From NCBI GenBank assembly GCA_021149145.1, contig GCA_021149145.1_4322.1: a stretch of 34,803 nucleotides of DNA. One strand, written 5' to 3'. Of this stretch, positions 7,330-34,139 are shown in pieces. The translations under genes and the position numbers were made by a program. Position 1 is the stretch's first letter, and the number at the start of each line of letters is the position of its first letter. The stretch comes from a phage. The notes below the pieces were generated by a model that ran no database searches, had not been told where the DNA came from, and was given only the letters and a program-made list of their open reading frames with translations.

Positions 7330-7374
7330 CTATAAGCCACCCTTGGCGGCGCGTCTTTAGCAAAACGTGCTATT
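7330..7374 (-). promoter_or_regulatory. Motif-type promoter for the moron ORF
   Basis: Minus strand AATAGCACGTTTTGCTAAA, 22-23 nt, TTATAG/TATAGT, leader ...CGCAAACGAGAGGAG; the element's TAG is the large terminase stop codon. Confidence 0.4.
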
Positions 7375-9056: not shown

Positions 9057-9581
9057 TTACAGTTTGCTAATCACAGACTCCAGGGCTTCCTTCATCGTTT
9101 CGACGTCGTTAGCAGAAGAGTTATTGCTTATAGTGATCTCCTGCGGTTTGTCGATTCCAAGCTCCTTGGAAATCATGCCAGGGTTAACAATGCCAGATGC
9201 TGCAAGCTGGTATTTCTGCTCGCGAATCACGGAATCAATGAATGCAATCACCTCATCATAACCAGCCGACTTCCTCCATTTCTCGATGGCGCCATGGGTG
9301 ACACCGCAGTAAAGGCAGAATCCGGTTAGCGTGAAGACTCTTGGTTTGTGCACCAGGCTCTCTTTTACCACACCCTGGAAGCTGGCTGTCTCGATTGCAT
9401 TGATTGCCTGGTCCTCAGCCCATGAGAAGTATTTCACGGCGAATTCAAATAGCTGTTCGGGTGTCATGCTTCTGTTTTTGGCTAGCGTTGTAATGTCTGA
9501 GTACTTTTTATTGTACATGGCTTTAAAGTTGCCAGAGCGGACCTTTTCTTGCGCCTGACTGGTGAAGTTTTCGTCTTTCAT
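9057..9581 (-). CDS. Terminase small subunit
   Basis: 174 aa immediately upstream of large terminase; AAAGGAGG RBS; TGATATAAT extended -10 upstream. Confidence 0.65.
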   Translation of the reverse strand: MKDENFTSQAQEKVRSGNFKAMYNKKYSDITTLAKNRSMTPEQLFEFAVKYFSWAEDQAINAIETASFQGVVKESLVHKPRVFTLTGFCLYCGVTHGAIEKWRKSAGYDEVIAFIDSVIREQKYQLAASGIVNPGMISKELGIDKPQEITISNNSSANDVETMKEALESVISKL

Positions 9582-10117: not shown

Positions 10118-10193
10118 TGGTGTTCCGCACTGGACTCGAACCAGTAACTAAGACTTAGGAGGTCTTTGCGTTATCCTGTTACGCCAGCAGAAC
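10118..10193 (-). tRNA. tRNA-Arg (anticodon CCU)
   Basis: 76-nt cloverleaf folded by hand: acceptor GTTCTGC/GCGGAAC (one G-U), D-arm GCGT-AACAGGATA-ACGC, anticodon arm AAGAC-CUCCUAA-GTCTT, T-arm ACTGG-TTCGAGT-CCAGT, discriminator A, encoded CCA. Confidence 0.8.
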
Positions 10194-10579: not shown

Positions 10580-10785
10580 TAAAACTCCTCAGTGATAAGC
10601 ATCTTGCCACAATATTTGCACTCGTAGAACGCACATGTTTCACCTATTGATACACTTGGTTTTGTTGACTCGTGGTATGCAGAGCTTATCGCCTTAATGT
10701 CAAAATCGTGAATGATTGATGTGAACACGTAAATGTAATGATGTTTGTGATTATTGTCGTTATCACTCATAAAGGCTATTCCCAT
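10579..10785 (-). CDS. Hypothetical protein (68 aa) with C-terminal CxxC
   Basis: ORF MGIAFMSD...; YECKYCGKM motif; 5' end lies inside a 29-bp direct repeat. Confidence 0.45.
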   Translation of the reverse strand: MGIAFMSDNDNNHKHHYIYVFTSIIHDFDIKAISSAYHESTKPSVSIGETCAFYECKYCGKMLITEEF

Positions 10786-10789
10786 TCTC
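10761..10789. repeat. 29-bp perfect direct repeat, copy 1 (TATCACTCATAAAGGCTATTCCCATTCTC)
   Basis: Identical to 10886-10914; on the minus strand it carries the ATG and first 8 codons (MGIAFMSD). Confidence 0.85.
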
Positions 10790-10793
10790 TAAC

Positions 10794-10910
10794 CTAATTC
10801 AATGTAAATATGAAGAAAATCATCCCAATTGCCGTAGCTATAGCCAATCCGATGGCGATCAGAGTTAGTACTAAATCAATGATAATATCACTCATAAAGG
10901 CTATTCCCAT
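10794..10910 (-). CDS. Possible small membrane protein (38 aa)
   Basis: Hand-translated: MGIAFMSDIIIDLVLTLIAIGLAIATAIGMIFFIFTLN; shares its first 8 codons with the downstream gene via the 29-bp repeat. Confidence 0.3.
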   Translation of the reverse strand: MGIAFMSDIIIDLVLTLIAIGLAIATAIGMIFFIFTLN

Positions 10911-10914
10911 TCTC
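10886..10914. repeat. 29-bp perfect direct repeat, copy 2
   Basis: Identical to 10761-10789; here it also encodes the C-terminus ...ENGNSLYE of the 78-aa ORF in another frame. Confidence 0.85.
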
Positions 10915-12643: not shown

Positions 12644-13165
12644 CTATTTAGCCTCCTTAATCATTTCTTGGTATGCGTTAATCATTGATACTGCACCCTT
12701 AAGTTCATCACCTTCAAGACCAGCGACGCTTGGTGATAGTTTCAACAATCGAGCCTTGAACCTTTCAATGGTAGCCGCCTCCTTCTCTTGCTCTGCTTTG
12801 CTTCTTGAGCCGGATTTTACAGCGCCAGGAACCAGGCTAAGTGATGCGCAGTATGTCTCACTCTCGCCATCAAAGTCGGTAAAACTAAGTGAGAACCTTG
12901 AGCGCACGTCAGCCGCCTTAATCTCAGGCATTCGGCTTACGGTGTTTGAAACGTATGACGCTTTTAGTTTTGGCATGTGGTATTCACCACCAGGTAGAAC
13001 CTCCTGACCACTTAGCGATACGAACGTCTCACGACTCATGCCGAAGTATTGACGAGCAATCATGGTCACAGGGACTGTGCACACTTTGTCTTCTGACTTG
13101 AGCGCCTGACTCGCCATGTATCGAATGATTTCACCCAAACTTACTGCTTCTTTATGTTCTGACAT
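12644..13165 (-). CDS. Hypothetical protein (173 aa), first leftward gene from the AT-rich control region
   Basis: ORF with ATG at 13165; no motif recognised. Confidence 0.5.
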   Translation of the reverse strand: MSEHKEAVSLGEIIRYMASQALKSEDKVCTVPVTMIARQYFGMSRETFVSLSGQEVLPGGEYHMPKLKASYVSNTVSRMPEIKAADVRSRFSLSFTDFDGESETYCASLSLVPGAVKSGSRSKAEQEKEAATIERFKARLLKLSPSVAGLEGDELKGAVSMINAYQEMIKEAK

Positions 13166-13286
13166 ATTCGTTACTCCTGATTGGTTGCCCTTCGTTAAGA
13201 TGAAACCATGGTATCATGAATATACGCGTTATCAAGTGTTATGTTGTGTTTATATCTGCATTGGTTACGCTTTTTGACCTCTCAGC

Positions 13287-13300
13287 CCAGCTATAGCTGG
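13287..13300. repeat. 14-bp perfect palindrome CCAGCTATAGCTGG
   Basis: Read directly; the AGCTATAGCT core recurs at 33072-33081 in the paralogous control region. Confidence 0.8.
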
Positions 13301-13440
13301 TGTAATTACCCTGTGTAAGATTTTACGCGGATTCGCCGGGGGTATGCATATGTATCTATATAGATAAAATTAGTAGTTTTCATAGAAAAACTATCGACCC
13401 ATCCATACGACCAATCTACACCATATACATACATATATAC

Positions 13441-13526
13441 AATAATAATAATAATATAGTAAAAGGTTGATATATATAGATATTATTATGTAACCATTGC
13501 GTAATCTAGCGTGGTAGGCGTATATG
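13441..13526. repeat. AT-rich control element, copy A (paralog of 33236-33320)
   Basis: (AAT)5 + identical 29-mer AGTAAAAGGTTGATATATATAGATATTAT (13458-13486) + GCGTA-type repeats at ~10-bp spacing (13499, 13509, 13518). Confidence 0.75.
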
Positions 13527-13764
13527 ATTCTTCGGAAGCGCACCTCATATACACACCATAACTTCGATAACGTGTATATCCAAATTGGCTCAGCAAGAAT
13601 CAAAATCAACTTGTATGGTAGTTCATCCACCATTCATTCACCCCACATCAATCATTGCAAATCCCGCAACAATCAAAAACATCATTGCATTCGATGCAAT
13701 ATTGTTATATGTGCAATAGTAAGATTAATCATTGCAATATCTGCAACAATAAATAAATCCAACT

Positions 13765-13809
13765 AATAGCACTTTTTGCTAAAGACATTTAGGTATTGCG
13801 GAGTTATGG
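13765..13809 (+). promoter_or_regulatory. Motif-type element (weak -10) upstream of the plus-strand island
   Basis: AATAGCACTTTTTGCTAAA followed 22 nt later by TTATGG, a poor hexamer. Confidence 0.3.
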
Positions 13810-13837
13810 TTCACTCATCAACAACGAGGAGAGAGAT

Positions 13838-14816: not shown

Positions 14817-15205
14817 TGACTACTACGATAACCAAAAATTTCATTAGCAACGACAACAAGCTATTTAAAGCTCGCGTTAAAAAGATTCACCAGTGGGTTA
14901 ACGGTGTCGCTGAGGAAGTTGAATTTGAGCAAATCAAAAAAGACGGCAAATGGATCAACCTGGAAGAACGTGGAAAATACATTAAAACCAAAACTCTTTA
15001 CTGCACAAAGGTTAACCATAAGTCTGGCGTTAAGAAAGACTTCAAAGAAGGTAAGCGATACCAGGTCAACATGCATAGCGGACTTTGTCAGTCAACTGGA
15101 TACATTTACGATGAAGATGGCAACGCCTGGCAGCTATATCGCAGCGAAGATGTTGGCTTTTATACGTTGTGTGAAACTTACCACTTTGAGGCTCAATACA
15201 AATGA
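14816..15205 (+). CDS. Hypothetical protein (129 aa)
   Basis: Lys-rich ORF; start overlaps upstream stop. Confidence 0.5.
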   Translation: MTTTITKNFISNDNKLFKARVKKIHQWVNGVAEEVEFEQIKKDGKWINLEERGKYIKTKTLYCTKVNHKSGVKKDFKEGKRYQVNMHSGLCQSTGYIYDEDGNAWQLYRSEDVGFYTLCETYHFEAQYK

Positions 15206-15372
15206 AATTATACATTGTAAGTGGTTGCACACACTATGATGGAAGCGAAGTGATTGCCGCTTTCGATGAAGAATTCAAAGCACAGGAGTTTAAATATAAC
15301 AAAGAAATATCTTCAGAAAATCACTTTGACTACTACAAGATAGATTGCATCTTACTAAATAGCACTAATTGA
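15202..15372 (+). CDS. Hypothetical small protein (56 aa)
   Basis: Hand-translated MKLYIVSGCTHYDGSEVIAAF...; ends ...LLNSTN via the promoter element. Confidence 0.4.
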   Translation: MKLYIVSGCTHYDGSEVIAAFDEEFKAQEFKYNKEISSENHFDYYKIDCILLNSTN

Positions 15373-15402
15373 TAATGCATTATAAGCGGCTATTGATATA
15401 AT
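15358..15402 (+). promoter_or_regulatory. Motif-type promoter (element + TATAAT) with inverted repeat bracketing the -10
   Basis: AATAGCACTAATTGATAAT, 22 nt, TATAAT; AGCGGC (15385-15390) and GCCGCT (15404-15409) flank the hexamer. Confidence 0.45.
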
Positions 15403-15431
15403 GGCCGCTCAGAACAACACGGAGAGAAGTA

Positions 15432-17015
15432 ATGTTTGATTTCAACGAAGATAAACTATCTGTTGAGCAGGTTATGGCAATCGCTGCCAATGACAACCTA
15501 CCACCGCTTCGCGTGGCTATTAATGCCAATGGCTATCGACAGTCTCAATCGTTCTGGAAAGCACCTGTCGAGATTGATACAGGTAATGATAAGTATCCAG
15601 TAATCTCACTCGGTAATGATATTGATGTTGTTGGTAAGCTATCGGCTAATATCGCTCGCTCGGTTCAGTTCCCTGAGTCGTCAGCTTACATGCACTTTCT
15701 TGGTTGTGTTTCTGCTGCAATGCTTGGGCGTTTTACTGTCGAGTATCATGGAACCCAACAGCCAACATCTTTGTACGTGGTAACAAGTCAGCCGCCTTCA
15801 ACTGGTAAATCAGCCATTAACTCGCTATCAATTGCGCCGATGATTGCTGAGACTGCGCGGTTGAATGAAGTACGTAAACGTGATCGAAAAAAGATTATGG
15901 CTAAACTGTCCGCTCTGGCTAAAGAGATGAAGCAGGAAAAATCACCTTCTGAAATGGCTTCACTTTTTGAGGAGAAGGAGGATTTAGAGGAGAAGCTCGA
16001 GAAGCTATGCGATATAGTATTCCCTGTCTCCGATACTACTCCGGAAGGTCTTGCGCGAATCAACAATCGCCAGGGTAGTTTTGCGGTAATCTCTGATGAG
16101 GCTACTAGCGTCAACTCACTGTTAGGCATGACTTACGGTGATGGCTCGAAGAAAACGAACAGCGAGCTCGTGCTGAAAGCATGGGATGCAGGTAATGTGT
16201 CAATTGCCCGTGCGAACGCAGAAAATAACATGAGCTTTGTGGCTATGGGATGCATCTCCGTAATTGCTCAGGATGAAACAATCAATGCCATTATGAATGC
16301 TGGTGCGCGTGGTATTGGTGTATCTGAGCGTTTCCTTCTGGTGCGTGAAAAATCATTTCTTGGCGACCGTGTATTTGTTGATGAAAATGGTGATTCAACC
16401 TATGAGGCTATTGATGGCGGCCTGAAAGCAGACTATTTCCGTCTTGTTCATGAGATTATGAATGAAGTTGAAGTGAAACTTACTGTAAGCGCGTCATCAA
16501 TGCGTTACCTTAACCGCGCTCGTCAAGAGATGGAGCCTCATCTTGGTGATGGTGGCAAGTATTCTCACACAATGTTGCGCGGTGCTCTTGGTAAGTTTGA
16601 TAAGCAAGCAATCCGCATCGCTTCTGTTCTGCACGTAATTCGTAACTGGTTCTCACCAGCCGGATCCAGCCCTCAAAAGTCAAGAGAGATTGAACTGGAT
16701 ACAATGCAGGAAGCGATTATGATTTTCAACGAACTAAGCAAGACTTATTTATCATCCGCTAGTGCTGCTGGTCATGCTGGTGACAATGCCGAGATGAACA
16801 AGCTGGTTGATATCCTGATTAAGCAGGGCAAGAATGGTAAAGGTGTTGTTGGTGTTCGCTCGTTGTATGAGGCTGCACGCAAGGTTAAACCTTTTGAAGG
16901 TCAGGCTGGAATTATGACTCGCATTAAGGACCACTTGATTCCTATGCTTGATGAGAAAAACTACACATGCCTGATTGGTGATAAAATTTACATTAATCCA
17001 CGATTGCTGGGGTAA
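15432..17015 (+). CDS. Hypothetical P-loop ATPase (Walker A and B), 527 aa
   Basis: GGAGAGAAG RBS; Walker A-like QPPSTGKSAIN and Walker B-like FAVISDEATS about 100 aa later; largest gene of the island. Family not assignable by eye. Confidence 0.55.
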   Translation: MFDFNEDKLSVEQVMAIAANDNLPPLRVAINANGYRQSQSFWKAPVEIDTGNDKYPVISLGNDIDVVGKLSANIARSVQFPESSAYMHFLGCVSAAMLGRFTVEYHGTQQPTSLYVVTSQPPSTGKSAINSLSIAPMIAETARLNEVRKRDRKKIMAKLSALAKEMKQEKSPSEMASLFEEKEDLEEKLEKLCDIVFPVSDTTPEGLARINNRQGSFAVISDEATSVNSLLGMTYGDGSKKTNSELVLKAWDAGNVSIARANAENNMSFVAMGCISVIAQDETINAIMNAGARGIGVSERFLLVREKSFLGDRVFVDENGDSTYEAIDGGLKADYFRLVHEIMNEVEVKLTVSASSMRYLNRARQEMEPHLGDGGKYSHTMLRGALGKFDKQAIRIASVLHVIRNWFSPAGSSPQKSREIELDTMQEAIMIFNELSKTYLSSASAAGHAGDNAEMNKLVDILIKQGKNGKGVVGVRSLYEAARKVKPFEGQAGIMTRIKDHLIPMLDEKNYTCLIGDKIYINPRLLG

Positions 17016-17018
17016 TTT

Positions 17019-17360
17019 ATGTACCTGCTCGACCTGTATAATTTCTGCGAAGGATACAAGAACTTCAACCGCCAGCACCTGGCAAGATTCATCTATAAGC
17101 ACAAGGATTGCGCAAGGATGGCCAAGGCTGCCGGGGTTGATGAAAGGTATTTTGCCTCAAGTTGCTCGAAGGAGTTTATAGCGAGAATGCTTACGGCTGG
17201 GTATCTTGATGGGGTTAATGGAGTGTACTGGTGTAAGGGTTCAATTAAGCGACCATTTCAGTTTGAATTCATGAGCCTTGAAGGTAGGTCCAGTGATTAC
17301 GTCAGTGAGATGATGAACATAGCCAACATGAGTGATGACGAATTGTTTGCACAAAAATAG
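17019..17360 (+). CDS. Hypothetical protein (113 aa)
   Basis: ORF starting 4 nt after the ATPase stop; followed by terminator. Confidence 0.45.
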   Translation: MYLLDLYNFCEGYKNFNRQHLARFIYKHKDCARMAKAAGVDERYFASSCSKEFIARMLTAGYLDGVNGVYWCKGSIKRPFQFEFMSLEGRSSDYVSEMMNIANMSDDELFAQK

Positions 17361-22823: not shown

Positions 22824-24533
22824 TCAATCCTCCATCGTAAATGATTTGTTGGCGATAATATCTTGAGACTTCTGGTTTTTACGGTGTGTGATTCTCAATG
22901 GGGCACGGAATAGATGTGCATTTGTCATAATCATTCTAGCATTACGCAATCTGCCAATTCTGAATGCCTCATTCCTGTTATCGATGTGTGTTGAGCAGAA
23001 AGCCTTCCATTTAACAGAGCAAACGCGATGGTCTGATTCAGGGAAGAATGTTTCATAAGCTCGGAATCTGTCACCACTGTGAGCCATAACCTCATATGAA
23101 GCAATAATCCCTGACTGGTTCTTTGTTAACCCAATCTTGAAGTCATAAACTCGCAACCAGTCCCCCTTACGATACATTTTTCCTGATAACTTAGCATTCG
23201 GGTCTATGAGCATCTCACCACAGCATCTGCAATTCTTAGCTGCAATATCATTCTTCTCACCGCATCCTTTCTTGATGATAGCTTTGGTCTGTGGGTCCGC
23301 CATATCTTCACACAGTATAAACTGAAAGAAGTGCTCGCAACGCTTACCGTCAATTACATTATTACAACGCCGTGCGAACGGAGAGTTCTCATAAGAACAT
23401 GCCGGGCATACCCTAGGTTCATCACCTCCTTTCCTTGATGACTTAAACTTCTGGTCCTGAACTTCTTCTATAATTGGGTCAAAGTAAAGCTCTGCCATAT
23501 CGTCAAGCGTTCCGGCGAAATCGAGAACAACATGGTCTTCTTTTACCATCCCTGAATCCTTGTGTTTTTTCTTAAGAATTCGCATACCACGACCAAGCAA
23601 CTGAATGAGTAGAGTAATGCTACCAACCTTCCTCAGGATAATGCTTGTATCCCACGGGGGGCAGTTTACGCCAGTTGTGAGGCAACCAATCTGAAATATG
23701 AACTTATATTCTCCGTTGGCTGCCTTCTCAAGTATCTCTCTACGCTTCTTCTCACCAGTGGAGTTGGTAACTATCGCCCAAGTAACACCTTCTGGAAGTG
23801 CGGCTGCCGCCTCCTCGCAATGCCGTTTGCCAGCGCAAGTTACCAATGCAGCATTCCTTGTTTCCATAAACTTAGCAGCAAATCTCATTATCTTTTGTGT
23901 CATCGTTTGGTTTTCGTGAATCTTTGCAGCCATCGCATCCATTTCTTTCTTGCTGAAGTCCTTAACCCCATCACTTCCATCAGGAGTGAACTCACTAAGG
24001 TCGTAGCCCAAATCACCAACTTCACCGTAGACAGTAGGAACAACGAACCCCAAGTCAACAAGGTAGCTGGTTGGCACTTGCATTACAGTTTTGCGCCAGA
24101 ATCCACGGACATTTGGGTTACTAACTACAATGTGGTCGTTGTTACGGTACGGGCTACCAGTTAACCCAAAGATACGAAGTTCGCGACCGTACTTCTCCCT
24201 GCATCGACGCTTCATTTCGGTAATGATTAACGTGTATTGCGCGCGACCAGTGCCAAGAAGCCCGGTATTCACACCATCCTTAAAGACCATCTCACCATTC
24301 TTCGTGCTCATCTGCTCGAATGTTTCCTCATTCTCTTCAGCTTCTACGATATCCATATGGTCCACCATGTGGCAATTATGTGCCACGACCCCGTCAGCAA
24401 TGAAATTATGGTGCTCAGGCATCTCTATATCCCAAACAAGTTCCTTGCCAATTGGTGAGATGTCTTTAATTTTGCTTGATTTTGTATTCCACGCCATTTT
24501 CCATGTGCTTACTAATTCTCTTAAAAAACTCAT
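22824..24533 (-). CDS. Helicase, C-terminal part: 53-aa intein C-terminal segment (blocks F/G) fused to C-extein
   Basis: Starts with ATG right after an in-frame stop; ...ELVWDIEMPEHHNFIADGVVAHN|CHMVDHMD...; C-extein carries helicase motif VI-like QLLGRGMR and a C-terminal Cys cluster. Confidence 0.7.
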   Translation of the reverse strand: MSFLRELVSTWKMAWNTKSSKIKDISPIGKELVWDIEMPEHHNFIADGVVAHNCHMVDHMDIVEAEENEETFEQMSTKNGEMVFKDGVNTGLLGTGRAQYTLIITEMKRRCREKYGRELRIFGLTGSPYRNNDHIVVSNPNVRGFWRKTVMQVPTSYLVDLGFVVPTVYGEVGDLGYDLSEFTPDGSDGVKDFSKKEMDAMAAKIHENQTMTQKIMRFAAKFMETRNAALVTCAGKRHCEEAAAALPEGVTWAIVTNSTGEKKRREILEKAANGEYKFIFQIGCLTTGVNCPPWDTSIILRKVGSITLLIQLLGRGMRILKKKHKDSGMVKEDHVVLDFAGTLDDMAELYFDPIIEEVQDQKFKSSRKGGDEPRVCPACSYENSPFARRCNNVIDGKRCEHFFQFILCEDMADPQTKAIIKKGCGEKNDIAAKNCRCCGEMLIDPNAKLSGKMYRKGDWLRVYDFKIGLTKNQSGIIASYEVMAHSGDRFRAYETFFPESDHRVCSVKWKAFCSTHIDNRNEAFRIGRLRNARMIMTNAHLFRAPLRITHRKNQKSQDIIANKSFTMED

Positions 24534-25514
24534 CTTGTGCCGACCTCGTTGTTATTGATACTGAGTAAAGCTCTCTCTTTTTCTTGCCGCCAATATAGCT
24601 TCTAACCTTAACTCCGTCATTAGCAATAAATGCTATTAGCGCATCAACTACTGATTGAACTTCACTCCTGCTAAATGATTCGGTGTGGATTTCTACAACC
24701 CTCTTCCCTGAGCTTACAGTGCAATGACCATCATCACCAAAGTAAGCAGCCCAACCAACTGGATCAAGCTCTCTGCATATCTTTCCAATATCGTAACCAT
24801 CCTTAGAATTTCCGTACTTATCAGCATATGAATCCAGAACTTTCGTACATGATGTTGATACGCAAAACCAGTTGTCGCCAAATCCAGGGTTTTTCTTCTC
24901 CCTGTATCTAGGGTTTAGTTTTGCAAACCTTTCAACCTTGCTTAGTGCGTGCTCCTTATTTCCAATATTCCAAGATAGCCTATGCGTTCCTTTTTCTGTA
25001 TTTTTAATCAAGCAACCATCACCAGCCATTGCCGCAAGAATGTTTTGATGTAAAAAGTCATCAACCTCCATTGATGGGTTGACGGTTGAATTATGATGCC
25101 CCGTTCTGTAATCCAAATAGAAATCGAAAGGGTTCTTAAGAAGTACGCCTAACCCCTTGCTTGAATGCGGCATAACTTTTTCACCACAGCCACACTTGCA
25201 CGCAGGAGCTTTTTCGTAAATTTGTCCTGCGAGCCGTCTAGCGACAGATTCATCCCAATACGAAGTTTTCCCGCTCCTACCCAGCAGCCGTTCGAATAAA
25301 GTTTGTGTGTACTCGTGCATTTTATTTCCTCTCCGCTTTCTAATTTAATTGATGATACATGTCTTACACCATTAGTAAAAACTCTTTTTGGCTTATGATA
25401 GAAGTAATCACCAGTGCTTTCGTTTATGCATTTTATTTTATGATTGATAAGGTCTTCGCTATCAATCCTCATCATCCCTGAATCGGTGGTTATCATCGTG
25501 TCTCCAGTTAAGCA
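24375..25514 (-). mobile_element. Intein (1140 nt, 380 codons) in helicase motif II, with LAGLIDADG endonuclease encoded in a shifted frame
   Basis: Block A CLTGDTMITT directly after ...VIAIDE; block B KCTSTHKLY; blocks F/G VWDIEMPEHHNFIADGVVAHN then C; joined exteins read DE-CH. The two splicing domains share one frame; the endonuclease ORF is in another. Confidence 0.75.
24466..25320 (-). CDS. LAGLIDADG homing endonuclease (intein-internal or free-standing)
   Basis: 284-codon ORF with its own ATG, two LAGLIDADG-like motifs (ILAAMAGDGCL, AAYFGDDGHC); overlaps the flanking ORFs by 172 and 68 nt. Confidence 0.65.
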   Translation of the reverse strand: MHEYTQTLFERLLGRSGKTSYWDESVARRLAGQIYEKAPACKCGCGEKVMPHSSKGLGVLLKNPFDFYLDYRTGHHNSTVNPSMEVDDFLHQNILAAMAGDGCLIKNTEKGTHRLSWNIGNKEHALSKVERFAKLNPRYREKKNPGFGDNWFCVSTSCTKVLDSYADKYGNSKDGYDIGKICRELDPVGWAAYFGDDGHCTVSSGKRVVEIHTESFSRSEVQSVVDALIAFIANDGVKVRSYIGGKKKRELYSVSITTRSAQDEFFKRISKHMENGVEYKIKQN

Positions 25515-25958
25515 CTCATCTATCGCGATAACAGCAGGAGCATAGTCACCAAGCCCCTTAAACAAGCCGTTAGCAGCCGTTCCCTCACTAGCCACTATGG
25601 TTGGATAGTAAACTGATTTAACGTTAAGGCCAGCGCAATAGACGCTATTACGGATGCCGAAATTACGAAGTTCCTCTGCGTTCTGGCTGACAATCTCTGA
25701 CTGGCGAGATAGGACCATGTAAGGAAGGCCAAGCTGTTCCATTCGTTTCCCAATCATGGCGAGAATAATCGTCTTGCCAGCCGAAACCGATAGGTCTGCT
25801 ATGAATGGCGCTTCGTACTTGCCAATAGCCTTTCCGATTGCGTCAAATGTCACGCACTGGAATGGGTATGGTGTGATTTCTCCGAACTGATAATCATTTT
25901 GAATCTGCTTGATTTTATCTTGGTCAAAGTTTGCTACTAAGCGTTCTACTGGAAGCAT
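25149..25958 (-). CDS. Helicase, N-terminal part: N-extein (148 aa, Walker A SVSAGKT, Walker B IAIDE) fused to 121-aa intein N-terminal segment
   Basis: ORF ends at TAG after intein blocks A and B; same frame as the C-terminal helicase ORF. Confidence 0.7.
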   Translation of the reverse strand: MLPVERLVANFDQDKIKQIQNDYQFGEITPYPFQCVTFDAIGKAIGKYEAPFIADLSVSAGKTIILAMIGKRMEQLGLPYMVLSRQSEIVSQNAEELRNFGIRNSVYCAGLNVKSVYYPTIVASEGTAANGLFKGLGDYAPAVIAIDECLTGDTMITTDSGMMRIDSEDLINHKIKCINESTGDYFYHKPKRVFTNGVRHVSSIKLESGEEIKCTSTHKLYSNGCWVGAGKLRIGMNLSLDGSQDKFTKKLLRASVAVVKKLCRIQARG

Positions 25959-26054: not shown

Positions 26055-26528
26055 ATGTGTAAAATTGACAAGCGAACTATTAACGGCAATAACGGGACCG
26101 TCCGCACGCAAGACAAGAAGCAACGCAAGCGACCTTCAGGCTACTACGTATTGAAAGATGAAGTAAAGGCTGGTCTACGCGCGCGTCTGGAAATGATTCT
26201 TGATTTCTACGGCACGAAAGCCAATATCGCCAAGCAGTTAAATGTATCTCACCAGACTGTAGAGCAATGGTTTAATCGCGGGATGATTTCGGCTCGAGGG
26301 GCTCAGAGAGCGCATAATGCGTACAAGCGAAATAAGGAAGGGTTCCGAGCTACATTCTGCCGACCAGACCTGCAATTCGACGGTAACGGAAAGCCGCTAA
26401 CACTTCGATGCAAGAAACGCCATATGCTTCGCGTAGTTACCGAGGCAGAACTAGCAATAAAACCACCCTGTCGACCGTGGCGCAAGAATAAGATTGCTAA
26501 CGAAGCAGCACGAAAAGCTAAAGGGTAA
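26055..26528 (+). CDS. Putative HTH DNA-binding protein (157 aa)
   Basis: Basic N-terminus; HTH-like segment TKANIAKQLNVSHQTVEQWFNRGMIS; first rightward gene from a divergent region. Confidence 0.45.
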   Translation: MCKIDKRTINGNNGTVRTQDKKQRKRPSGYYVLKDEVKAGLRARLEMILDFYGTKANIAKQLNVSHQTVEQWFNRGMISARGAQRAHNAYKRNKEGFRATFCRPDLQFDGNGKPLTLRCKKRHMLRVVTEAELAIKPPCRPWRKNKIANEAARKAKG

Positions 26529-26579: not shown

Positions 26580-27059
26580 ATGAACTGGCATGATTATTTT
26601 TACTATGTAGATGGCAAATTGCATTGGAAGATTAGCACTGCAAGACGTGTTAAGGTTGGCGATGAGTGCAACTCACTATCTACATCTGGCTATTACAAAG
26701 TGTCTGTTAATGGCTTTAGGACTTATGTACATAGAGTTGTGTGGGAGATGTTTAATGGATAACTTCAAAATGGCGACTACATTGATCATATAAACCATAA
26801 CAAATTAGATAACAGAATAGAAAACCTAAGAGTAACAACAAATCAAGGTAACTCAAGAAATTGCAAGCTTAGCGTTTTATCAACAACTGGTTATTGTGGA
26901 GTGGCAAAGCTAAATCACGGAAAATTTAAGGCTCACATCACGGTTGACGGCAAGCAGCTACACCTTGGTAACTTCGATACTCCAGAACGGGCGTATAAAG
27001 TAAGAATTGAAGCAGAGAGAAAATACAACTTTCACGAAAATAACGGGTTAAGCAAATGA
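26580..27059 (+). pseudogene. HNH-AP2-type homing endonuclease interrupted by an in-frame TAA (26760-26762)
   Basis: GGAGAGAAG RBS; MNWHDYFYYVDGKLHWK...HRVVWEMFNG, TAA, then same frame LQNGDYIDHINHNKLDNRIENLRVTTNQGNSRN (HNH) and an AP2-like tail; stop overlaps primase ATG (ATGA). Confidence 0.6.
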
Positions 27060-27979
27060 ATTACGATAAGAATGAAGTTATACCTAAGATGGCCGGATTG
27101 TGGAAATCATTTTATGTAAAGGAACTTGGTTGGAATGATAGACACATAAGTAAGAAGCACGGACCATGCCCATGCTGCTTTGGCACTGACAGATTCAGAT
27201 TTACCGACGAAATAGGCAGTGAAAAAGGAAATGGCGCGGCAGTTTGTTCGAAATGCGGAAGTGACTCCGGTATAGGATGGGTCATGAAGTGCACCGGATT
27301 GTCCTTCGCCGATTCAGTAAATTTGCTTGGTGACTGGCTGAACTTAACACCAATTGAGGTTATAGTTAAAGCAAACAAGCAAGCCTCGAGAACTAAGCGT
27401 TACAAAATGGGCGCTCAAGTCGACCATGAGAAAGTCCTGGAGGTTATGGAGAGAACTAAGAGAGTGGAATCGAGTCCACTCACGACATACGAGGGTATTT
27501 ATGACGCGTTTGGTTTTGATGTTGGTATAGCTAAAAATGGTTCAATGATTCACGCAATCCCTTGTTCGATGGTTTATGAAGATGGGCTTAGTGATGAGTT
27601 CTGTAACGTAATGTTTATCGATGAGGATTCAAATGTTAAGTTCCTTGCTGGTGATTACACTCGTGATTCTGTTTCCGTTATTGGTTCTAAGCAGGATGAT
27701 AGTTATACTTATGTTGTTGACAATTATATTGATGGCATGCGTGTTCACCTTGCTACTGGTGGGCGCGAAGTGTTTGTTGCTTTCTCCTGTTACAATATGG
27801 AGATGGTTATCCACCGCGACAAGTCAAGGAAGTTCAGAATTGCTTGCCGTGATTCTGATAGCGATATACTCGCCGTTGCTGACGATAGGGGTGTTGATGT
27901 TGTAGTTCCTAATGACGGTGAGTCATTTAAAACAGGCATACGAAAGAAAGTGTACAAAGCAAACGACTTGCTAAACTAG
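27056..27979 (+). CDS. DNA primase (zinc ribbon plus TOPRIM-like region)
   Basis: 307 aa; N-terminal Cys4 ribbon GPCPCCFGTDRFRF...AVCSKCG typical of primase zinc-binding domains; acidic DxD-like clusters later (CRDSDSDILAVADDRG). Confidence 0.55.
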   Translation: MNYDKNEVIPKMAGLWKSFYVKELGWNDRHISKKHGPCPCCFGTDRFRFTDEIGSEKGNGAAVCSKCGSDSGIGWVMKCTGLSFADSVNLLGDWLNLTPIEVIVKANKQASRTKRYKMGAQVDHEKVLEVMERTKRVESSPLTTYEGIYDAFGFDVGIAKNGSMIHAIPCSMVYEDGLSDEFCNVMFIDEDSNVKFLAGDYTRDSVSVIGSKQDDSYTYVVDNYIDGMRVHLATGGREVFVAFSCYNMEMVIHRDKSRKFRIACRDSDSDILAVADDRGVDVVVPNDGESFKTGIRKKVYKANDLLN

Positions 27980-28064: not shown

Positions 28065-30518
28065 ATGGCAATTTATGACTTAGGAACAGCATCGCTAGCC
28101 TCAAATGGCGAGGTTACTGGCGTAGGTACTACATGGAAAGCACCTCTTACACTGATTCGTGTAGGTGCTACTATCATTTTCAAAACCAGCCCTCTGAAAA
28201 TTTACACCATCTCTGAAATCATCAGCGATACTCAGGTTAATGTTTATAATCCAAGTTCTGAAACTGTTCCCGCTGGTACTGGTTACGCAATTCTTGCTCA
28301 TGATGGAATTACTGTTCAGGGGTTGGCGCAGGATGTTGCGGAAACATTGCGTTACTACCAGTCAAAAGAGACTTCTATTGAAAGTCTACTGCAATTTATT
28401 GGTCAAGATACTTTTGATTGGCCTCGTCTTGAACAACTGGCAACTCAGTCAACTACCGGAGCTGCCGAGGCGCTTGCTAGTCAGATCTCTGCCGCTGAGA
28501 GTGCCTCTACAGCGGTAGGTGCTAGCAATAACGCACAAAATTCATATAACAGGACGGTTGCAGCAATAAATGCGGCTGGAAATACAGCGGCTGTTGCTTA
28601 CTTTGCTGATCACGGAATAGGTAGCACGACAACGCCATTTCTTACCTCTTTAGATTGGCAAACAATGCAATTTTGTTCCGGAGGTCGTTATCAGTGCACA
28701 CTTAGGGATATGTTAAACACCCCAAAAGAAATTAGTTCAATGTTTCCGGTTTCAACAACTCCTATTTGTATTGATGTTATTGCAACTAGGGGTGTTAATT
28801 CGGCTAGTGTATTAAGGTTATCTCCGTCTACTGGGTCAAACTCAAATTTTAGGATTGCAGATGTCACAATTTCTGGTGCGACTGGATCTAGGGTTTTTTA
28901 TGTAAGGGAAGCACTAAGCTTGCCTGGCGGTGATGCTGCAACTGGTGGAGCAAGCGCGTCAAGGGTTAGGGGGTTGCTTGATGTTTACTCAAAGGGTGAG
29001 GTGTTATCAATTTTAAATACAGATTCAAAAAAAAGCACATCAAGCTATGGCGGCTCAATATCTTCAGCAATAGAAACCGCTGGCGATGGCGGGTCGGTAG
29101 TTATAGGCCCGGGAACTTATGAGAGTAATAACTACTCCTTTGCTGGCAGGAACATATCAGGCTCTGGATATAATACCGTAATAAGTGTTAAACCTTTTGA
29201 AACCGGACTCACATCAACGCTATCGGTTCCGCACTGGAGGCAAAAGCATTTATCGGATTTGCAGTTTACAGGTACTGCAATACAAGGTAATAACGGCTTT
29301 CAATTCCCGGATGACCCTTATGCTGGAAGGGTTGTATTGGATAGGCTTTACTTCAATGACCTGGATGTTGGTATAAGGAAAAATGCTGGCAACATTGGAA
29401 ATACCTACAGAAACGTAAGTGTTAGAAATGCGAATTACGGGTATAGAGCAAAAGCTCATGACAAAATGCATATAGGATCGGACACTTTATACGGATACCA
29501 CTCAGATACAATCTCTCAATATTCAGTAATGCTAGATGCGACAAGCACAAGTAGCGCAACGAACCATGGCGCTGGAGGAATTGGTGGGTGGTGGATTAGG
29601 GATTCAATAATGGAGGACTCTGCTGGCGGCGGTATAAGGTTAAAGAATAAACCTGGAGATTGCCCAACATCACCTTGCGGATTGTCTAACGTATGGTTTG
29701 AAGCGATAGCAACTGGGGGAGCAGTTAACGTAGGTGAGGGAGCTGAACTCCCAAGGGTTTTGAAGCTCATCGATACGTCCGTTTTCTTTGCTGAGCATTC
29801 TTATATTAATAACATTGAGTTATCAAATTCAAACCTTGTAACTTATGGGTGCAGGTTTGATAACGCTGATGGGCGCCAAAGTTTCTCTCTTGATTCGAAC
29901 AGTATTATTTTTGCTAAGGATGCATACCTGAATGGATCTTCAACATCAAACGTTATAGTTGAGTCGCTGGTATCACAGACAGCCAAGATAACGGGTACAT
30001 CTGACTTATCTGTTAGAGGATATGTTACTAAAGGTCGAGTTTTTAATCCAGATTCCGGAACTGTTTTAGTCAGGAGGCCTTTTGGTACTGGTGGGAGCAA
30101 CTTTGGTGGAACAGCGTCGGCAAGTGAAGGTCCTGATACAAGGGGTATACACTCGCTATCATCTGGATACTACGAATTGCTTGGTGCGGCTCAGTACGAA
30201 TTGATAAATGGTGCCTTTAATATAACCGCTGGCAAATGGTATGTTTGGGGTATCTCTGCAAACAGAATTCAAGGTGGTGCTGATGGTGTTATCCGTATTT
30301 TTGGTAGAGCATCTTTAGGGCAGGTATTCACTGAGGGCGGTAAGTGGGTTCACACATTTGGAGTTGCTCAGGCTTCAGTCTCTGGCACTGCAAACCTGCA
30401 TATCAACCTTAATGGGCTACCTGGTATGGCATTAAGTCTTGCTGATTACTTCGTTGTAGAGTTCGATAACCAAAGAGACGCTTTAATATTTGCCAACTCA
30501 AGGATGGCGCTTCAATAA
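28065..30518 (+). CDS. Tailspike / tail fibre protein with probable beta-helix (depolymerase-like) domain
   Basis: 817 aa, GGAGA RBS; Gly/Ser/Thr/Asn-rich repetitive central region of the kind seen in right-handed beta-helix tailspikes; flanked by terminators. Confidence 0.55.
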   Translation: MAIYDLGTASLASNGEVTGVGTTWKAPLTLIRVGATIIFKTSPLKIYTISEIISDTQVNVYNPSSETVPAGTGYAILAHDGITVQGLAQDVAETLRYYQSKETSIESLLQFIGQDTFDWPRLEQLATQSTTGAAEALASQISAAESASTAVGASNNAQNSYNRTVAAINAAGNTAAVAYFADHGIGSTTTPFLTSLDWQTMQFCSGGRYQCTLRDMLNTPKEISSMFPVSTTPICIDVIATRGVNSASVLRLSPSTGSNSNFRIADVTISGATGSRVFYVREALSLPGGDAATGGASASRVRGLLDVYSKGEVLSILNTDSKKSTSSYGGSISSAIETAGDGGSVVIGPGTYESNNYSFAGRNISGSGYNTVISVKPFETGLTSTLSVPHWRQKHLSDLQFTGTAIQGNNGFQFPDDPYAGRVVLDRLYFNDLDVGIRKNAGNIGNTYRNVSVRNANYGYRAKAHDKMHIGSDTLYGYHSDTISQYSVMLDATSTSSATNHGAGGIGGWWIRDSIMEDSAGGGIRLKNKPGDCPTSPCGLSNVWFEAIATGGAVNVGEGAELPRVLKLIDTSVFFAEHSYINNIELSNSNLVTYGCRFDNADGRQSFSLDSNSIIFAKDAYLNGSSTSNVIVESLVSQTAKITGTSDLSVRGYVTKGRVFNPDSGTVLVRRPFGTGGSNFGGTASASEGPDTRGIHSLSSGYYELLGAAQYELINGAFNITAGKWYVWGISANRIQGGADGVIRIFGRASLGQVFTEGGKWVHTFGVAQASVSGTANLHINLNGLPGMALSLADYFVVEFDNQRDALIFANSRMALQ

Positions 30519-30548: not shown

Positions 30549-30977
<429 letters not shown>

Positions 30978-32713: not shown

Positions 32714-32908
32714 TCAATCCTTAATTTTAACAATCTTAACAGCTTTCAAATCTTCCTCAGTGAAATATCCGGTCAGAATAGATTTTGCCTCTTTCTTGCT
32801 ATCGAATCGGTCCGCTTCAGATTTGTGAACTGTATATCCAGCGGGGCCACCAAAGTAGCAATCGCCGAACAGTGCGTTGTTTTTCTCTTTAATAATGAAG
32901 TATGGCAT
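32714..32908 (-). CDS. Hypothetical protein (64 aa), first leftward gene from the second control region
   Basis: GAGAGATAGAGAA-ATG leader; ORF. Confidence 0.45.
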   Translation of the reverse strand: MPYFIIKEKNNALFGDCYFGGPAGYTVHKSEADRFDSKKEAKSILTGYFTEEDLKAVKIVKIKD

Positions 32909-33071
32909 TTCTCTATCTCTCTATTGTTGCGTGCTTTCGATTAGTTAATGATGCCGTACGCACAACGCATAGTCCAATTGGTATCACCTATTAATTAATC
33001 AAGTATACGCGTATAATTTTGTAACTACGTGTAGACATTGGCATGAGTTACGTTTTTAGCCACTTAAGCCA

Positions 33072-33081
33072 AGCTATAGCT
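33072..33081. repeat. Palindrome AGCTATAGCT (paralog of 13287-13300)
   Basis: Read directly. Confidence 0.7.
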
Positions 33082-33235
33082 CAATGTAAATAGTGAGTAT
33101 ACCGTGTATACCGATTTTAGCGGAGGGTGCATAGGTATAGGTGCTGCGCAATACTGTATAAAATCACATGGTATAAAAATTATAAGCGGAACACTCAAGA
33201 ACAGTAGTTACATGATATACAAGATATACATATAT

Positions 33236-33320
33236 AATAATAATAATAAGAGTAAAAGGTTGATATATATAGATATTATAATGTAACTATGGCGTAAACT
33301 GGCGTAACTGGGCGTATACG
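33236..33320. repeat. AT-rich control element, copy B, with three GGCGTA repeats at exact 10-bp spacing
   Basis: (AAT)4-5 + identical 29-mer (33251-33279) + GGCGTAAACT / GGCGTAACTG / GGCGTATACG at 33291, 33301, 33311. Confidence 0.75.
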
Positions 33321-33373
33321 ATTTCCAGCGGATGCATATGGTATACATGGAGTTACATTGGTTACGCGTAAAC

Positions 33374-33417
33374 AATAGCACGAATAGCTAAAACTAATAC
33401 GCAAAACCCTGTATAGT
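33374..33417 (+). promoter_or_regulatory. Motif-type promoter (element + TATAGT)
   Basis: AATAGCACGAATAGCTAAA, 21 nt, TATAGT, leader ...AAACGAGAGAGG before the ATG at 33450. Confidence 0.45.
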
Positions 33418-33449
33418 TGGTCACACAAAAAACGAGAGAGGATTTCAAA

Positions 33450-34139
33450 ATGGTTATTTGGTCTTTATTTGATGGTTCAGGGCTGGCTGTGAAAGATTGG
33501 GCTGAGGCTTGTCACGAGTGCTACTGTTTCAACTTTGATGAGTCTGACCACGGTAGTTACGGGGATTTAAATGCAAAATTTGAACATGAGAACATCACCT
33601 ACGTTAATGCCTGGATAGATGGCAACTTCGACTTTGATGTGAAGCCTGATATCATTTTAGCGTTCCCGCCGTGTACGGATTTAGCCGTGAGCGGGTCAAG
33701 GCACTTTGAGCGAAAGCGACTGGTTAACCATAACTTCCAGATTGAAGCTGCGGAAACATGTAAAGTTGCTTTTAACTTGGCTAATAAGTACGAAGTCCCA
33801 TACATGATTGAGAATCCAATCAGCGTACTGTCATCACTCTGGAGAAAGCCTAATAAGACTTTCCACCCATATGAATACGGAGGCTATTTGCCGGAAGATG
33901 ATTTACACCCGTTTTTTAGCGACCTAATAAAGCCAAAAGACGCATATCCCAAGAAGACATGCATTTGGTATGGCAATGGGTTTAAATGGCCAGAGGCGAT
34001 TCCTGTGGACGTTAACGATGGATTCTCTGACCAATACAAGAAGCTTGGTGGGAAGAGTAAGAAGACAAAGGTAATTCGCAGTCTAACTCCTCGCGGTTTT
34101 GCAAAAGCAGTCTTCATAGCAAATAGCACGAATAGATAA
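33450..34139 (+). CDS. SAM-dependent DNA methyltransferase-like protein (about 229 aa; specificity uncertain)
   Basis: Track ORF 33417 (TTG); better ATG at 33450 with GAGAGAGG RBS; FDGSG (FxGxG-like), FPPC and ENP segments; size matches the small T1 Dam class as I recall it; ends ...ANSTNR via the promoter element. Confidence 0.5.
   Translation: MVIWSLFDGSGLAVKDWAEACHECYCFNFDESDHGSYGDLNAKFEHENITYVNAWIDGNFDFDVKPDIILAFPPCTDLAVSGSRHFERKRLVNHNFQIEAAETCKVAFNLANKYEVPYMIENPISVLSSLWRKPNKTFHPYEYGGYLPEDDLHPFFSDLIKPKDAYPKKTCIWYGNGFKWPEAIPVDVNDGFSDQYKKLGGKSKKTKVIRSLTPRGFAKAVFIANSTNR

Follow-up and report, generated by a model that had tools for sequence, protein, structure and literature searches.

Two paralogous intergenic modules of an Rtp-like, T1-family coliphage as candidate replication origins

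Introduction

The site at which DNA replication begins in T1-like phages has been stated as not found (PMC7718038, PMC11447400), and the question is raised again by two intergenic regions in a phage contig of 34,803 nucleotides (GCA_021149145.1_4322.1, assembly GCA_021149145.1), which is referred to here, at its full length, as the window. BLAST of the two regions against phage genomes identified the phage as an Rtp-like member of the Drexlerviridae (a T1-like coliphage), the closest records being Escherichia phages ES and AN_ECEAS with 95% identity across region A and 88% across region B. Region A (13166-13837) separates a leftward early operon, whose first gene encodes a DUF7174 protein (12644-13165, homologue of rtp1), from a rightward operon leading to a 527-aa DUF3987 protein. 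By convention, the records of T1, Rtp, and TLS are opened at the corresponding spot. Region B (32909-33449) is flanked on one side by a leftward operon, consisting of a small open reading frame (ORF; 32714-32908) followed by recE, erf, and ssb, and on the other by a rightward DNA methyltransferase gene starting at 33450.

A first-pass annotation of the window considered both regions to be related AT-rich control regions and proposed that they were either replication origins or duplicated bidirectional early-promoter hubs. The analyses presented here suggest that each region holds one copy of an ancient cis-acting module, which would be a replication origin or one of a pair of cooperating origin elements. 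We assign this reading a probability of about one half, and consider the two modules, on the sequence evidence, to be the best available candidates for the origins of the T1 family. Neither an earlier account of these modules nor mapping data for replication initiation at them was found in the literature searched.

Results

Paralogy of the two modules

Every element listed in the first-pass annotation was recovered in its place. The segment 13246-13525 of region A is paralogous to 33029-33320 of region B. The two share a 29-mer without mismatch within 55 nt of 91% identity, and their left flanks are collinear. When compared with dinucleotide shuffles, the local alignment of the two cores gave z = 19.6 and that of the left flanks z = 6.3, the latter exceeding all 300 shuffles, while the similarity in the 50-75 nt to the right of the repeats was not significant (z = -0.2). 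The 29-mer AGTAAAAGGTTGATATATATAGATATTAT (13458-13486 and 33251-33279) had no further match in the window even when three mismatches were allowed (0 expected), and the 10-bp palindrome AGCTATAGCT occurred only at its two positions in the modules (0.01 expected; Table 1). The blocks TGGTATCA (13209-13216 and 32979-32986) and TACGCGT (13223; 33006 and 33363) were common to both regions, as had been claimed. Two of the descriptions held in part. The (AAT)5 run was found in copy A (13441-13455), and its counterpart in copy B is (AAT)4 plus AA (33236-33249). The GCGTA-type repeats said to be about 10 bp apart are present in both copies, with exact spacings of 10 and 9 bp in copy A and of 10 and 10 bp in copy B (starts at 33292, 33302, and 33312; those of copy A are given in Table 1).

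Instability of the cores

Duplex stability was calculated from nearest-neighbour stacking energies in 60-bp segments. The least stable 60-mer of the whole window was the core of copy A (13429-13488; -55.7 kcal/mol, compared with a mean of -80.4 and a standard deviation of 4.9) and the second least stable was the core of copy B (33222-33281; -56.5 kcal/mol), the third being at -63.9 kcal/mol. The same pair of cores made up the two least stable segments in all 10 related whole genomes (z 4.5-6.0; next approximately 3.5). Both cores are thus markedly unstable AT-rich segments and have the appearance of a DNA-unwinding element. The core of copy B is in addition bracketed by a perfect 8-bp inverted repeat, AGTTACAT at 33206-33213 and ATGTAACT at 33281-33288.

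Repeats flanking the cores

Short, helically phased repeats were found next to the unstable core in both modules. In region B, GCGTA occurred 9 times (1.0 expected), GTATA 17 times (1.2 expected), and GTATAC 5 times (0.1 expected), and a single 300-bp segment of this region contained 14 GCGTA/GTAAC/GTATAC motifs, compared with a genome mean of 1.3 and a standard deviation of 1.7. CGT(A) was retained at the three repeat positions of copy A in 14 of 14 aligned copies. The palindromes at the two edges of module B, TACGCGTA (33006) and TTACGCGTAA (33362), each consist of two inverted half-sites.

The triplet of GCGTA repeats was also present in Rogunavirus AKS96, at spacings of 10 and 9-10 bp, and in T1 the counterpart of the phased repeats was GGCGTAATTTGGCGTAATTT, with the triplet present twice. 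The flanking motif itself differed between lineages. It was TGTAAC/GTTACA in T1 (9 copies, 0.29 expected), GTGAAC in TLS (5 copies, 0.33 expected), and GTAAGAT in the Klebsiella Webervirus cp45, whose 49-kb genome has 16 copies, 13 of them within the two modules. Module B of cp45 (14905-15417) directly follows the primase gene and holds 10 of these 16 motifs. Such lineage specificity is typical of binding sites co-evolving with their cognate protein. The layout of an AT-rich core beside helically phased repeats, from which the first-pass annotation had derived its origin reading, is real and conserved family-wide; the origin reading gains support from it, short of proof.

The IHF consensus WATCAANNNNTTR had three matches in the window, two of which were the two cores, and the match was retained in 21 of 23 distinct Braunvirinae copies, the variants being mostly at N positions.

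Conservation across the phage family

A BLAST search with the 111-nt core returned only 15 records, which was attributed to the low-complexity filter, and whole genomes were compared instead. These were six Braunvirinae (ES, Rtp, Msk, A110b, vB_EcoS-12397V, and T145P1), T1 (Tunavirinae), TLS (Tempevirinae), and two Klebsiella Weberviruses. Each of the six Braunvirinae carried the core in exactly two copies, at the identical two loci, and the other four genomes had the same two-locus layout with diverged sequence; in T1 the AT cores lie at ~0.2 kb and ~30.0 kb. With module B as query, 133 phage records were matched, essentially all of them T1-like, while neither 5,426 complete E. coli genomes nor 72,556 plasmids gave a match. 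A generic repeat or mobile element was therefore rejected, and the possibility, raised with the first-pass annotation, that the similarity reflects a generic AT-rich repeat scattered through related genomes does not agree with two copies per genome at fixed loci in all relatives checked. A search for related loci with the RecE protein as query found none.

Orthologous copies were more alike than the two copies within one genome, and the A copies of different phages shared variants not found in their own B copies, e.g., ACTAAATGG in Rtp and Msk. Gene conversion as the source of the similarity between A and B was therefore rejected. The duplication is old, predating these phages, with both copies kept.

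The constraint on the modules was compared with that on the surrounding genes. At four-fold degenerate sites of the recE, DUF3987, and primase genes, identity between the window and the Rtp group was only 0.38-0.62, i.e., near saturation. Module B was 0.77-0.88 identical over approximately 360 bp, although the adjacent genes were at 0.38-0.50 at four-fold sites, and its right-edge stretch (33321-33392) reached 0.85-0.93 among B copies, with one exception at 0.61. The core of copy A was 0.77-0.85 identical to those of the other Braunvirinae, and the left part of module A (13246-13420) only 0.39-0.70. Judged from these comparisons, the DNA of the modules is under strong purifying selection, and on account of the identity values copy B is the complete, strongly constrained version, while copy A retains the core and repeats only. 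The palindrome of copy A was kept in ES and Rtp, replaced by AGATATAGCT in Msk, and diverged in copy A of Veterinaerplatzvirus; that of copy B was kept in most B copies, with AGCCATAGCT in some.

Coding sequence as the cause of the conservation was rejected. The frames of the short ORFs that cover the modules (13391-13633, 13524-13766, 33104-33286, and others) are not conserved, and non-triplet indels occur in the alignments. The Rtp46 annotation (AM156909 28260-28658) crosses the counterpart of the left half of module B. The matching stretch of the window (32909-33115) carries stop codons, with an ORF only at 32714-32908 (64 aa), and the long rtp46 annotation is therefore probably an over-extension into conserved non-coding DNA.

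Promoters around the modules

Promoters were searched by a consensus scan and a sigma-70 position weight matrix. The leftward promoter of region A (13235-13208) scored 11.6 bits and was the sole strong match (at least 7.5 bits) in region A and the sole strong one in either region. The early operon that begins with the DUF7174 (rtp1-like) gene is driven by this promoter, which corresponds to P01 of TLS. The leftward promoter of region B, which drives the small ORF and the recE-erf-ssb operon, scored less than 7.5 bits; its sequence GTCCAATTGG was nevertheless invariant in seven aligned B copies, and its counterparts are near-consensus, i.e., TTGACT-17-TATAAT in T1 (annotated 30319-30346) and P51 in TLS. 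Within the shared sequence (13246-13525 and 33029-33372), no sigma-70 matrix match of at least 7.5 bits was found, matches of the consensus scan were at or below shuffle expectation, and good -35/-10 pairs on both strands were not found. It was reported that TLS has only three intergenic sigma-70 promoters genome-wide, P01, P51, and P57 (PMC11447400). P01 and P51 lie outside the modules and point away from them; they are the two outward-facing promoters. No transcription-start or early-promoter data for T1-like phages were found in the literature searched.

Divergent units did not accompany the element wherever it occurs. In TLS, copy B lies between the tail-fibre gene J and recE, both rightward, and in the Weberviruses between the primase gene and recE on the same strand, with the regulator-primase operon directly upstream. 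As copy B stands between co-directional genes in these phages, the conservation of the module does not extend to divergent transcription around it. The alternative of duplicated bidirectional early-promoter hubs is thus unsupported for the shared sequence, since the promoters are at its outer edges. With no strong internal promoter and a copy B that is not divergent in all lineages, the hub reading fits poorly and an origin-like reading would fit better.

A candidate replication helicase

The DUF3987 gene begins 1.6 kb to the right of copy A. An AlphaFold model of its 527-aa product (pLDDT 88.9, alignment of 29 sequences) ended, at residues ~450-527, in a winged helix of the order helix-strand-helix-helix-strand-strand, and the top 50 matches listed by Foldseek against the PDB were all MCM subunits (best E 1e-5). 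According to the model, the protein has an MCM-like AAA+ fold that ends in this winged helix. The result is in line with earlier work that placed DUF3987 proteins among the phage replicative helicases of MCM-like superfamily 6 carrying a winged helix at the C terminus (PMC4889955), and with the helicase activity demonstrated for a PriCT-DUF3987 protein (PMC11724360). The last ~90 residues were the least conserved part of the protein across lineages. Other candidate binders of the repeats are a Cro/CI-like helix-turn-helix protein of 157 aa (26055-26528), co-transcribed with the primase, and a 113-aa protein (17019-17360) encoded after the helicase gene.

A block specific to copy A

The first-pass annotation missed that copy A is composite, in that 13600-13760 is not present in B. 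In this block, ATTGCA/TGCAAT occurred six times (0.7 expected) and not at all in B, and an inverted repeat ATTGCAT-TCG-ATGCAAT was found at 13684-13700. With 0.80-0.91 identity across the Braunvirinae (0.80-0.83 between the window and the Rtp group over the wider stretch 13600-13790), it is among the best conserved non-coding blocks. The packaging terminus of MSK determined with PhageTerm (36,862; PMC8421802) maps to ~13618 of the window, position 13706 corresponds to coordinate 1 of the Rtp record, and the T1 record has its coordinate 1 in the equivalent TTGCA block. In TLS, the packaging initiation (pac) site was restriction-mapped to ~215 bp from the AT core (PMC11447400). The block is probably the pac region, and its position beside copy A accounts for the past discussion of packaging in this neighbourhood. 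The positions of the modules and of the features around them are given in Table 1.

Table 1. Positions of the shared modules, their parts, and associated features in the window
Feature	Position	Strand	Remarks
Leftward sigma-70 promoter, region A	13208..13235	-	TTGATA, 16 nt, TGA-TACCAT (TGATACCAT); consensus scan and position weight matrix
Shared module, copy A	13246..13525	.	Paralogous to 33029-33320; core 13421-13525 alone conserved in distant relatives
Palindrome AGCTATAGCT, copy A	13289..13298	.
AT-rich core, candidate DNA-unwinding element, copy A	13423..13488	.	Contains (AAT)5 and 29-mer
IHF core consensus WATCAANNNNTTR match (TATCAACCTTTTA), copy A	13460..13472	-	AT tract 5' of match
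Phased repeat array, copy A	13488..13522	+	ATGTAAC, then GCGTA 13499, GCGTG 13509, GCGTA 13518
Copy A-specific module, probable pac	13600..13760	.	Not part of shared module; no counterpart in B
Putative rightward promoter with 21-nt repeat, region A	13764..13810	+	AATAGCACTTTTTGCTAAAGAC; -10-like TATGGT 13805-13810
Gene served by rightward promoter of region A	start 13838	+
Candidate replication helicase/initiator, 527-aa DUF3987	15432..17015	+	PF13148 E 9e-41; phrog_2373 'DNA helicase'
Phage primase gene	27056-27979
Leftward promoter, region B	32948..32977	-	T(T)GGACT, 17 nt, CATCAT; read from sequence
Palindrome TACGCGTA	33006..33013	.	Marks left edge of module B; repeat unit GCGTA is its half-site
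Shared module, copy B	33029..33372	.	Complete, more strongly conserved version
Palindrome AGCTATAGCT, copy B	33072..33081	.
AT-rich core, candidate DNA-unwinding element, copy B	33206..33288 (core 33215-33281)	.	(AAT)4 33236-33247; 29-mer 33251-33279
IHF core consensus match (TATCAACCTTTTA), copy B	33253..33265	-
Direct repeats GGCGTAA, GGCGTAA, GGCGTAT	33291..33319	+	Exact 10-bp spacing
Right-edge block GTATACATGGAGTTACATTGGTTACGCGTAA	33341..33371	.	Second AGTTACAT and palindrome TTACGCGTAA 33362-33371
Putative rightward promoter with 21-nt repeat, region B	33373..33417	+	AATAGCACGAATAGCTAAAAC; -10-like TATAGT 33412-33417; serves DNA methyltransferase gene

Other features of the window

A family of 21-nt repeats (aaATAGCACnnnTTGnTAAAg) was described for TLS, T1, and Rtp, with no function given (PMC11447400). 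Nine copies were found in the window, at 7373(-), 13766(+), 14579(+), 15359(+), 18825(-), 26042(-), 31742(-), 33375(+), and 34123(+), and in all nine the A of ATAGCAC is followed, at a constant distance of 38 nt, by the start of a -10-like hexamer (TATAAT, TATAGT, TATCAT, CATAAT, or similar). In such promoters, which lack a -35 consensus, the repeat would cover positions from about -57 to -36, and since it contains the inverted half-sites TAGCA-N5-TGCTA, an activator-dependent promoter class is suggested. The early helix-turn-helix protein (26055-26528) is a possible activator of these promoters.

An exact 29-nt direct repeat, TATCACTCATAAAGGCTATTCCCATTCTC, was found among small leftward ORFs at 10761-10789 and 10886-10914, 125 nt apart, and possibly marks duplicated gene starts. 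A tRNA-Arg with anticodon CCU is encoded at 10118-10193 (-); such a tRNA has been reported for other T1-like phages. GATC occurs 24 times in the 34.8 kb, compared with ~136 expected for random sequence, and not at all in regions A and B; this scarcity is consistent with restriction avoidance. A superfamily 2 helicase gene (22824-25958, -) is split by an intein within its DECH box, with the N part ending ...AIDE|CLTGDT and the C part starting ...VVAHN|CHMV, and a LAGLIDADG endonuclease ORF (24466-25320) lies in another frame and overlaps both helicase halves. The interruption could reflect a split intein (a 'fractured gene') or an intein with a frameshift; the Rtp counterpart is uninterrupted (664 aa). 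A run of TGC/TGT triplets (30565-30656; CAG/CAA-type on the coding strand) was found at the start of a leftward ssb-like ORF (30549-30977).

Discussion

How the modules could act as origins

As candidate origins, the modules each offer an AT-rich core of ~65 bp, predicted to be the easiest DNA of the genome to melt and containing, in this lineage, a canonical IHF consensus site, together with GCGTA(A), GTAAC, and GTATAC arrays on both sides, the three right-hand direct repeats being one helical turn apart. Inverted copies of the recognition sequence bracket the core. A sequence-specific phage protein may first occupy the repeats on one face of the helix, the candidates being the winged-helix tail of the DUF3987 protein, the neighbouring 113-aa protein, and the Cro/CI-like helix-turn-helix protein. 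The core would then be bent by IHF, and the outward-firing promoters at the edges could supply negative supercoiling that aids its opening. Finally, the hexameric helicase would be loaded and the phage primase would begin synthesis. Copy B, upstream of recE-erf-ssb, is the complete version, and copy A adjoins the probable pac. It is from the sequence features that we infer protein binding, melting, helicase loading, and origin activity.

A more far-reaching proposal, which we regard as speculative and rather doubtful, is that T1-family phages possess two paralogous archaeal-type origins, with short inverted boxes around an AT-rich unwinding element, at which the MCM-like DUF3987 hexamer is loaded and its variable winged helix reads the boxes itself (GCGTAAC, TGTAAC, GTGAAC, or GTAAGAT, depending on the phage), so that the helicase is the initiator. 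If this were true, no separate Orc- or DnaA-type initiator would be required.

Comparison with known origins

Similar arrangements are known from other systems, although none of them matches in all respects. The Bacillus phage SPP1, a virulent pac-type siphovirus, has two origins, oriL and oriR, which are bound by the replisome organiser G38P. As here, two distant related cis elements carry short repeated boxes beside an AT-rich region. However, the two phages show no homology in sequence or protein, a G38P-like initiator was not found here, oriL lies within the initiator gene while both modules here are intergenic, and origin activity and protein binding have been shown for SPP1, compared with sequence evidence in the present case.

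The satellite phage P4, with ori plus crr, likewise needs two separated repeat-bearing sites in cis, which are read by the C-terminal winged helix of a replicative helicase, the P4 alpha protein. P4 alpha combines a superfamily 3 helicase with a primase in one protein, whereas here the helicase is an MCM-like DUF3987 protein and the primase is a separate gene. In addition, crr lacks an AT-rich unwinding core, which both modules here have. The GTGAAC/GTTCAC motif of TLS resembles TGTTCACC, which we take to be the P4 type I iteron; this is a lead only.

With the MCM-loading oriC of archaea (ORB/mini-ORB), the modules share the inverted boxes around an AT core (AGTTACAT ... ATGTAACT in copy B), the presence of several origins (here candidate ones) per genome, and a helicase with an MCM fold and a C-terminal winged helix. 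On the other hand, the window revealed no Orc1/Cdc6-like initiator, its boxes are far shorter than ORB, and the host is bacterial, with host Pol III presumably acting as the polymerase.

The iteron origins of lambda, pSC101, and R6K resemble the modules in the order of AT-rich unwinding region, IHF site (here a consensus match confined to the Braunvirinae), and phased direct repeats, and in the inverted copies at the edges. They differ in that the units here are 5-8 bp instead of 17-22 bp, that there is no DnaA box, and that no O/Rep-type initiator gene overlaps or adjoins the modules. The T7 primary origin and T4 oriF/oriG are origins of virulent coliphages with an AT-rich tract in a promoter-rich intergenic region, where flanking transcription could assist opening, as it could here. 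However, those origins need a strong promoter into the AT tract, of which none was detectable in these modules, and they lack flanking repeat arrays.

Points against an origin function

A number of points weigh against the origin reading, whose support comes from sequence comparison. No DnaA boxes were found at the modules and no GATC cluster, with no GATC sites in regions A and B. The repeat motif is short and degenerate in this phage (GCGTA / GTAAC / GTATAC). The recognition helices of both helix-turn-helix candidates vary between lineages, and the repeats are not tied to any candidate. The IHF match and the exact AT-core sequence are confined to the Braunvirinae and were not found in the cores of T1, TLS, and Rogunavirus, and the IHF match is therefore a lineage feature. 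Software-predicted promoters have been placed within the AT core in other annotations, e.g., at the equivalent spot of ETEP102. In T1, TLS, Rtp, and cp45, the cumulative GC skew reaches its lowest value at copy A; this is also the point of the main switch in gene orientation, no skew change was seen at copy B, and the skew is uninformative because it is confounded by gene orientation. T1 concatemers are formed by recombination, as older work indicated, and recombination-driven, origin-independent replication could lessen the need for a defined origin. Finally, both modules lie ~190-300 bp directly upstream of the two early sigma-70 promoters, and an upstream regulatory or operator role in early transcription would explain the same duplication.

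Alternative functions

The last point leads to the rival that survives best, in which the shared module is the upstream control region of the two early promoters (the counterparts of P01 and P51) with no role in replication. A phage or host protein on the repeats, with IHF bending the AT core, would switch the early operons on or, later, off. In every lineage the two copies are situated directly upstream of the leftward early promoters, lineage-specific repeats fit operators of a co-evolving regulator equally well, and a conserved Cro/CI-like helix-turn-helix protein is made from the third early promoter. IHF-assisted upstream elements are also known at phage early promoters, e.g., lambda pL and Mu Pe. 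However, at 190-300 bp from the -35 elements the core is far away for UP or IHF effects, at least 10 sites over 300 bp around the least stable DNA of the genome would be atypical for an operator, and extreme meltability has no obvious role in repression. Moreover, the third early promoter, that of the regulator-primase operon, has no such module. We therefore consider this explanation unlikely.

In a second alternative, the shared module would be a packaging element, with the small terminase subunit (9057-9581) on the phased repeats, cutting nearby, with copy A as part of pac, and with copy B as a second or auxiliary site. IHF sites and phased repeats often accompany pac and cos sites, and the published MSK and Rtp termini, 90-250 bp from copy A, as well as the mapped TLS pac, are close to the module. 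The ATATA repeats of T1 were linked to pac in the Rtp paper, in the account of it that the MSK paper gives (PMC8421802). On the other hand, the termini (~13618-13706) are not within the shared module but in the adjacent A-specific block, whose ATTGCA motifs have no counterpart in B, and this speaks against a pac function of the shared module. The TLS restriction data consist of a single submolar pac fragment series (PMC11447400), and the better conservation of copy B would be hard to explain for an uncut site. A packaging role of the shared module is thus very improbable.

The weakest alternative, that the modules are small non-coding RNA genes or start sites, e.g., for a primer or regulatory RNA that a weak promoter at the left edge of the AT core would produce and whose sequence or structure is conserved, was rejected as an RNA gene and is likewise very improbable: weak rightward promoter-like matches do lead into the core (ATGATA-18-AATAAT at 33212-33241, and TATACA-17-AATAAT), and promoters have been predicted by software at the equivalent spot of ETEP102, but the matches are at chance level with a spacing not conserved between the copies, no terminator was found, Rfam gave no match at the gathering threshold or even at E = 1, and the RNAalifold signal (z -4.4 and -4.6) was symmetric on the two strands and comes from inverted repeats at the DNA level. 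The origins of T7 and T4 act through primer transcripts from a promoter plus AT tract, and in its primer-transcript form this alternative merges with the origin model.

Implications for T1-like phages

The question of the T1-family origin is narrowed by the analysis to a pair of short candidate targets with exact boundaries in each genome, which are conserved in phages of E. coli and of Klebsiella alike. T1 belongs to the seven classical T phages. Its relatives, the Drexlerviridae, rank with the most common coliphages, with contaminants of laboratories and fermentations, and with candidates for therapy. In the region conventionally taken as the genome end, the probable pac can now be separated from the origin-like module, which is relevant to annotation, engineering, and the choice of the linearisation point. 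The modules may moreover be linked to an MCM-like helicase, which would bear on how such a helicase is loaded in bacteria.

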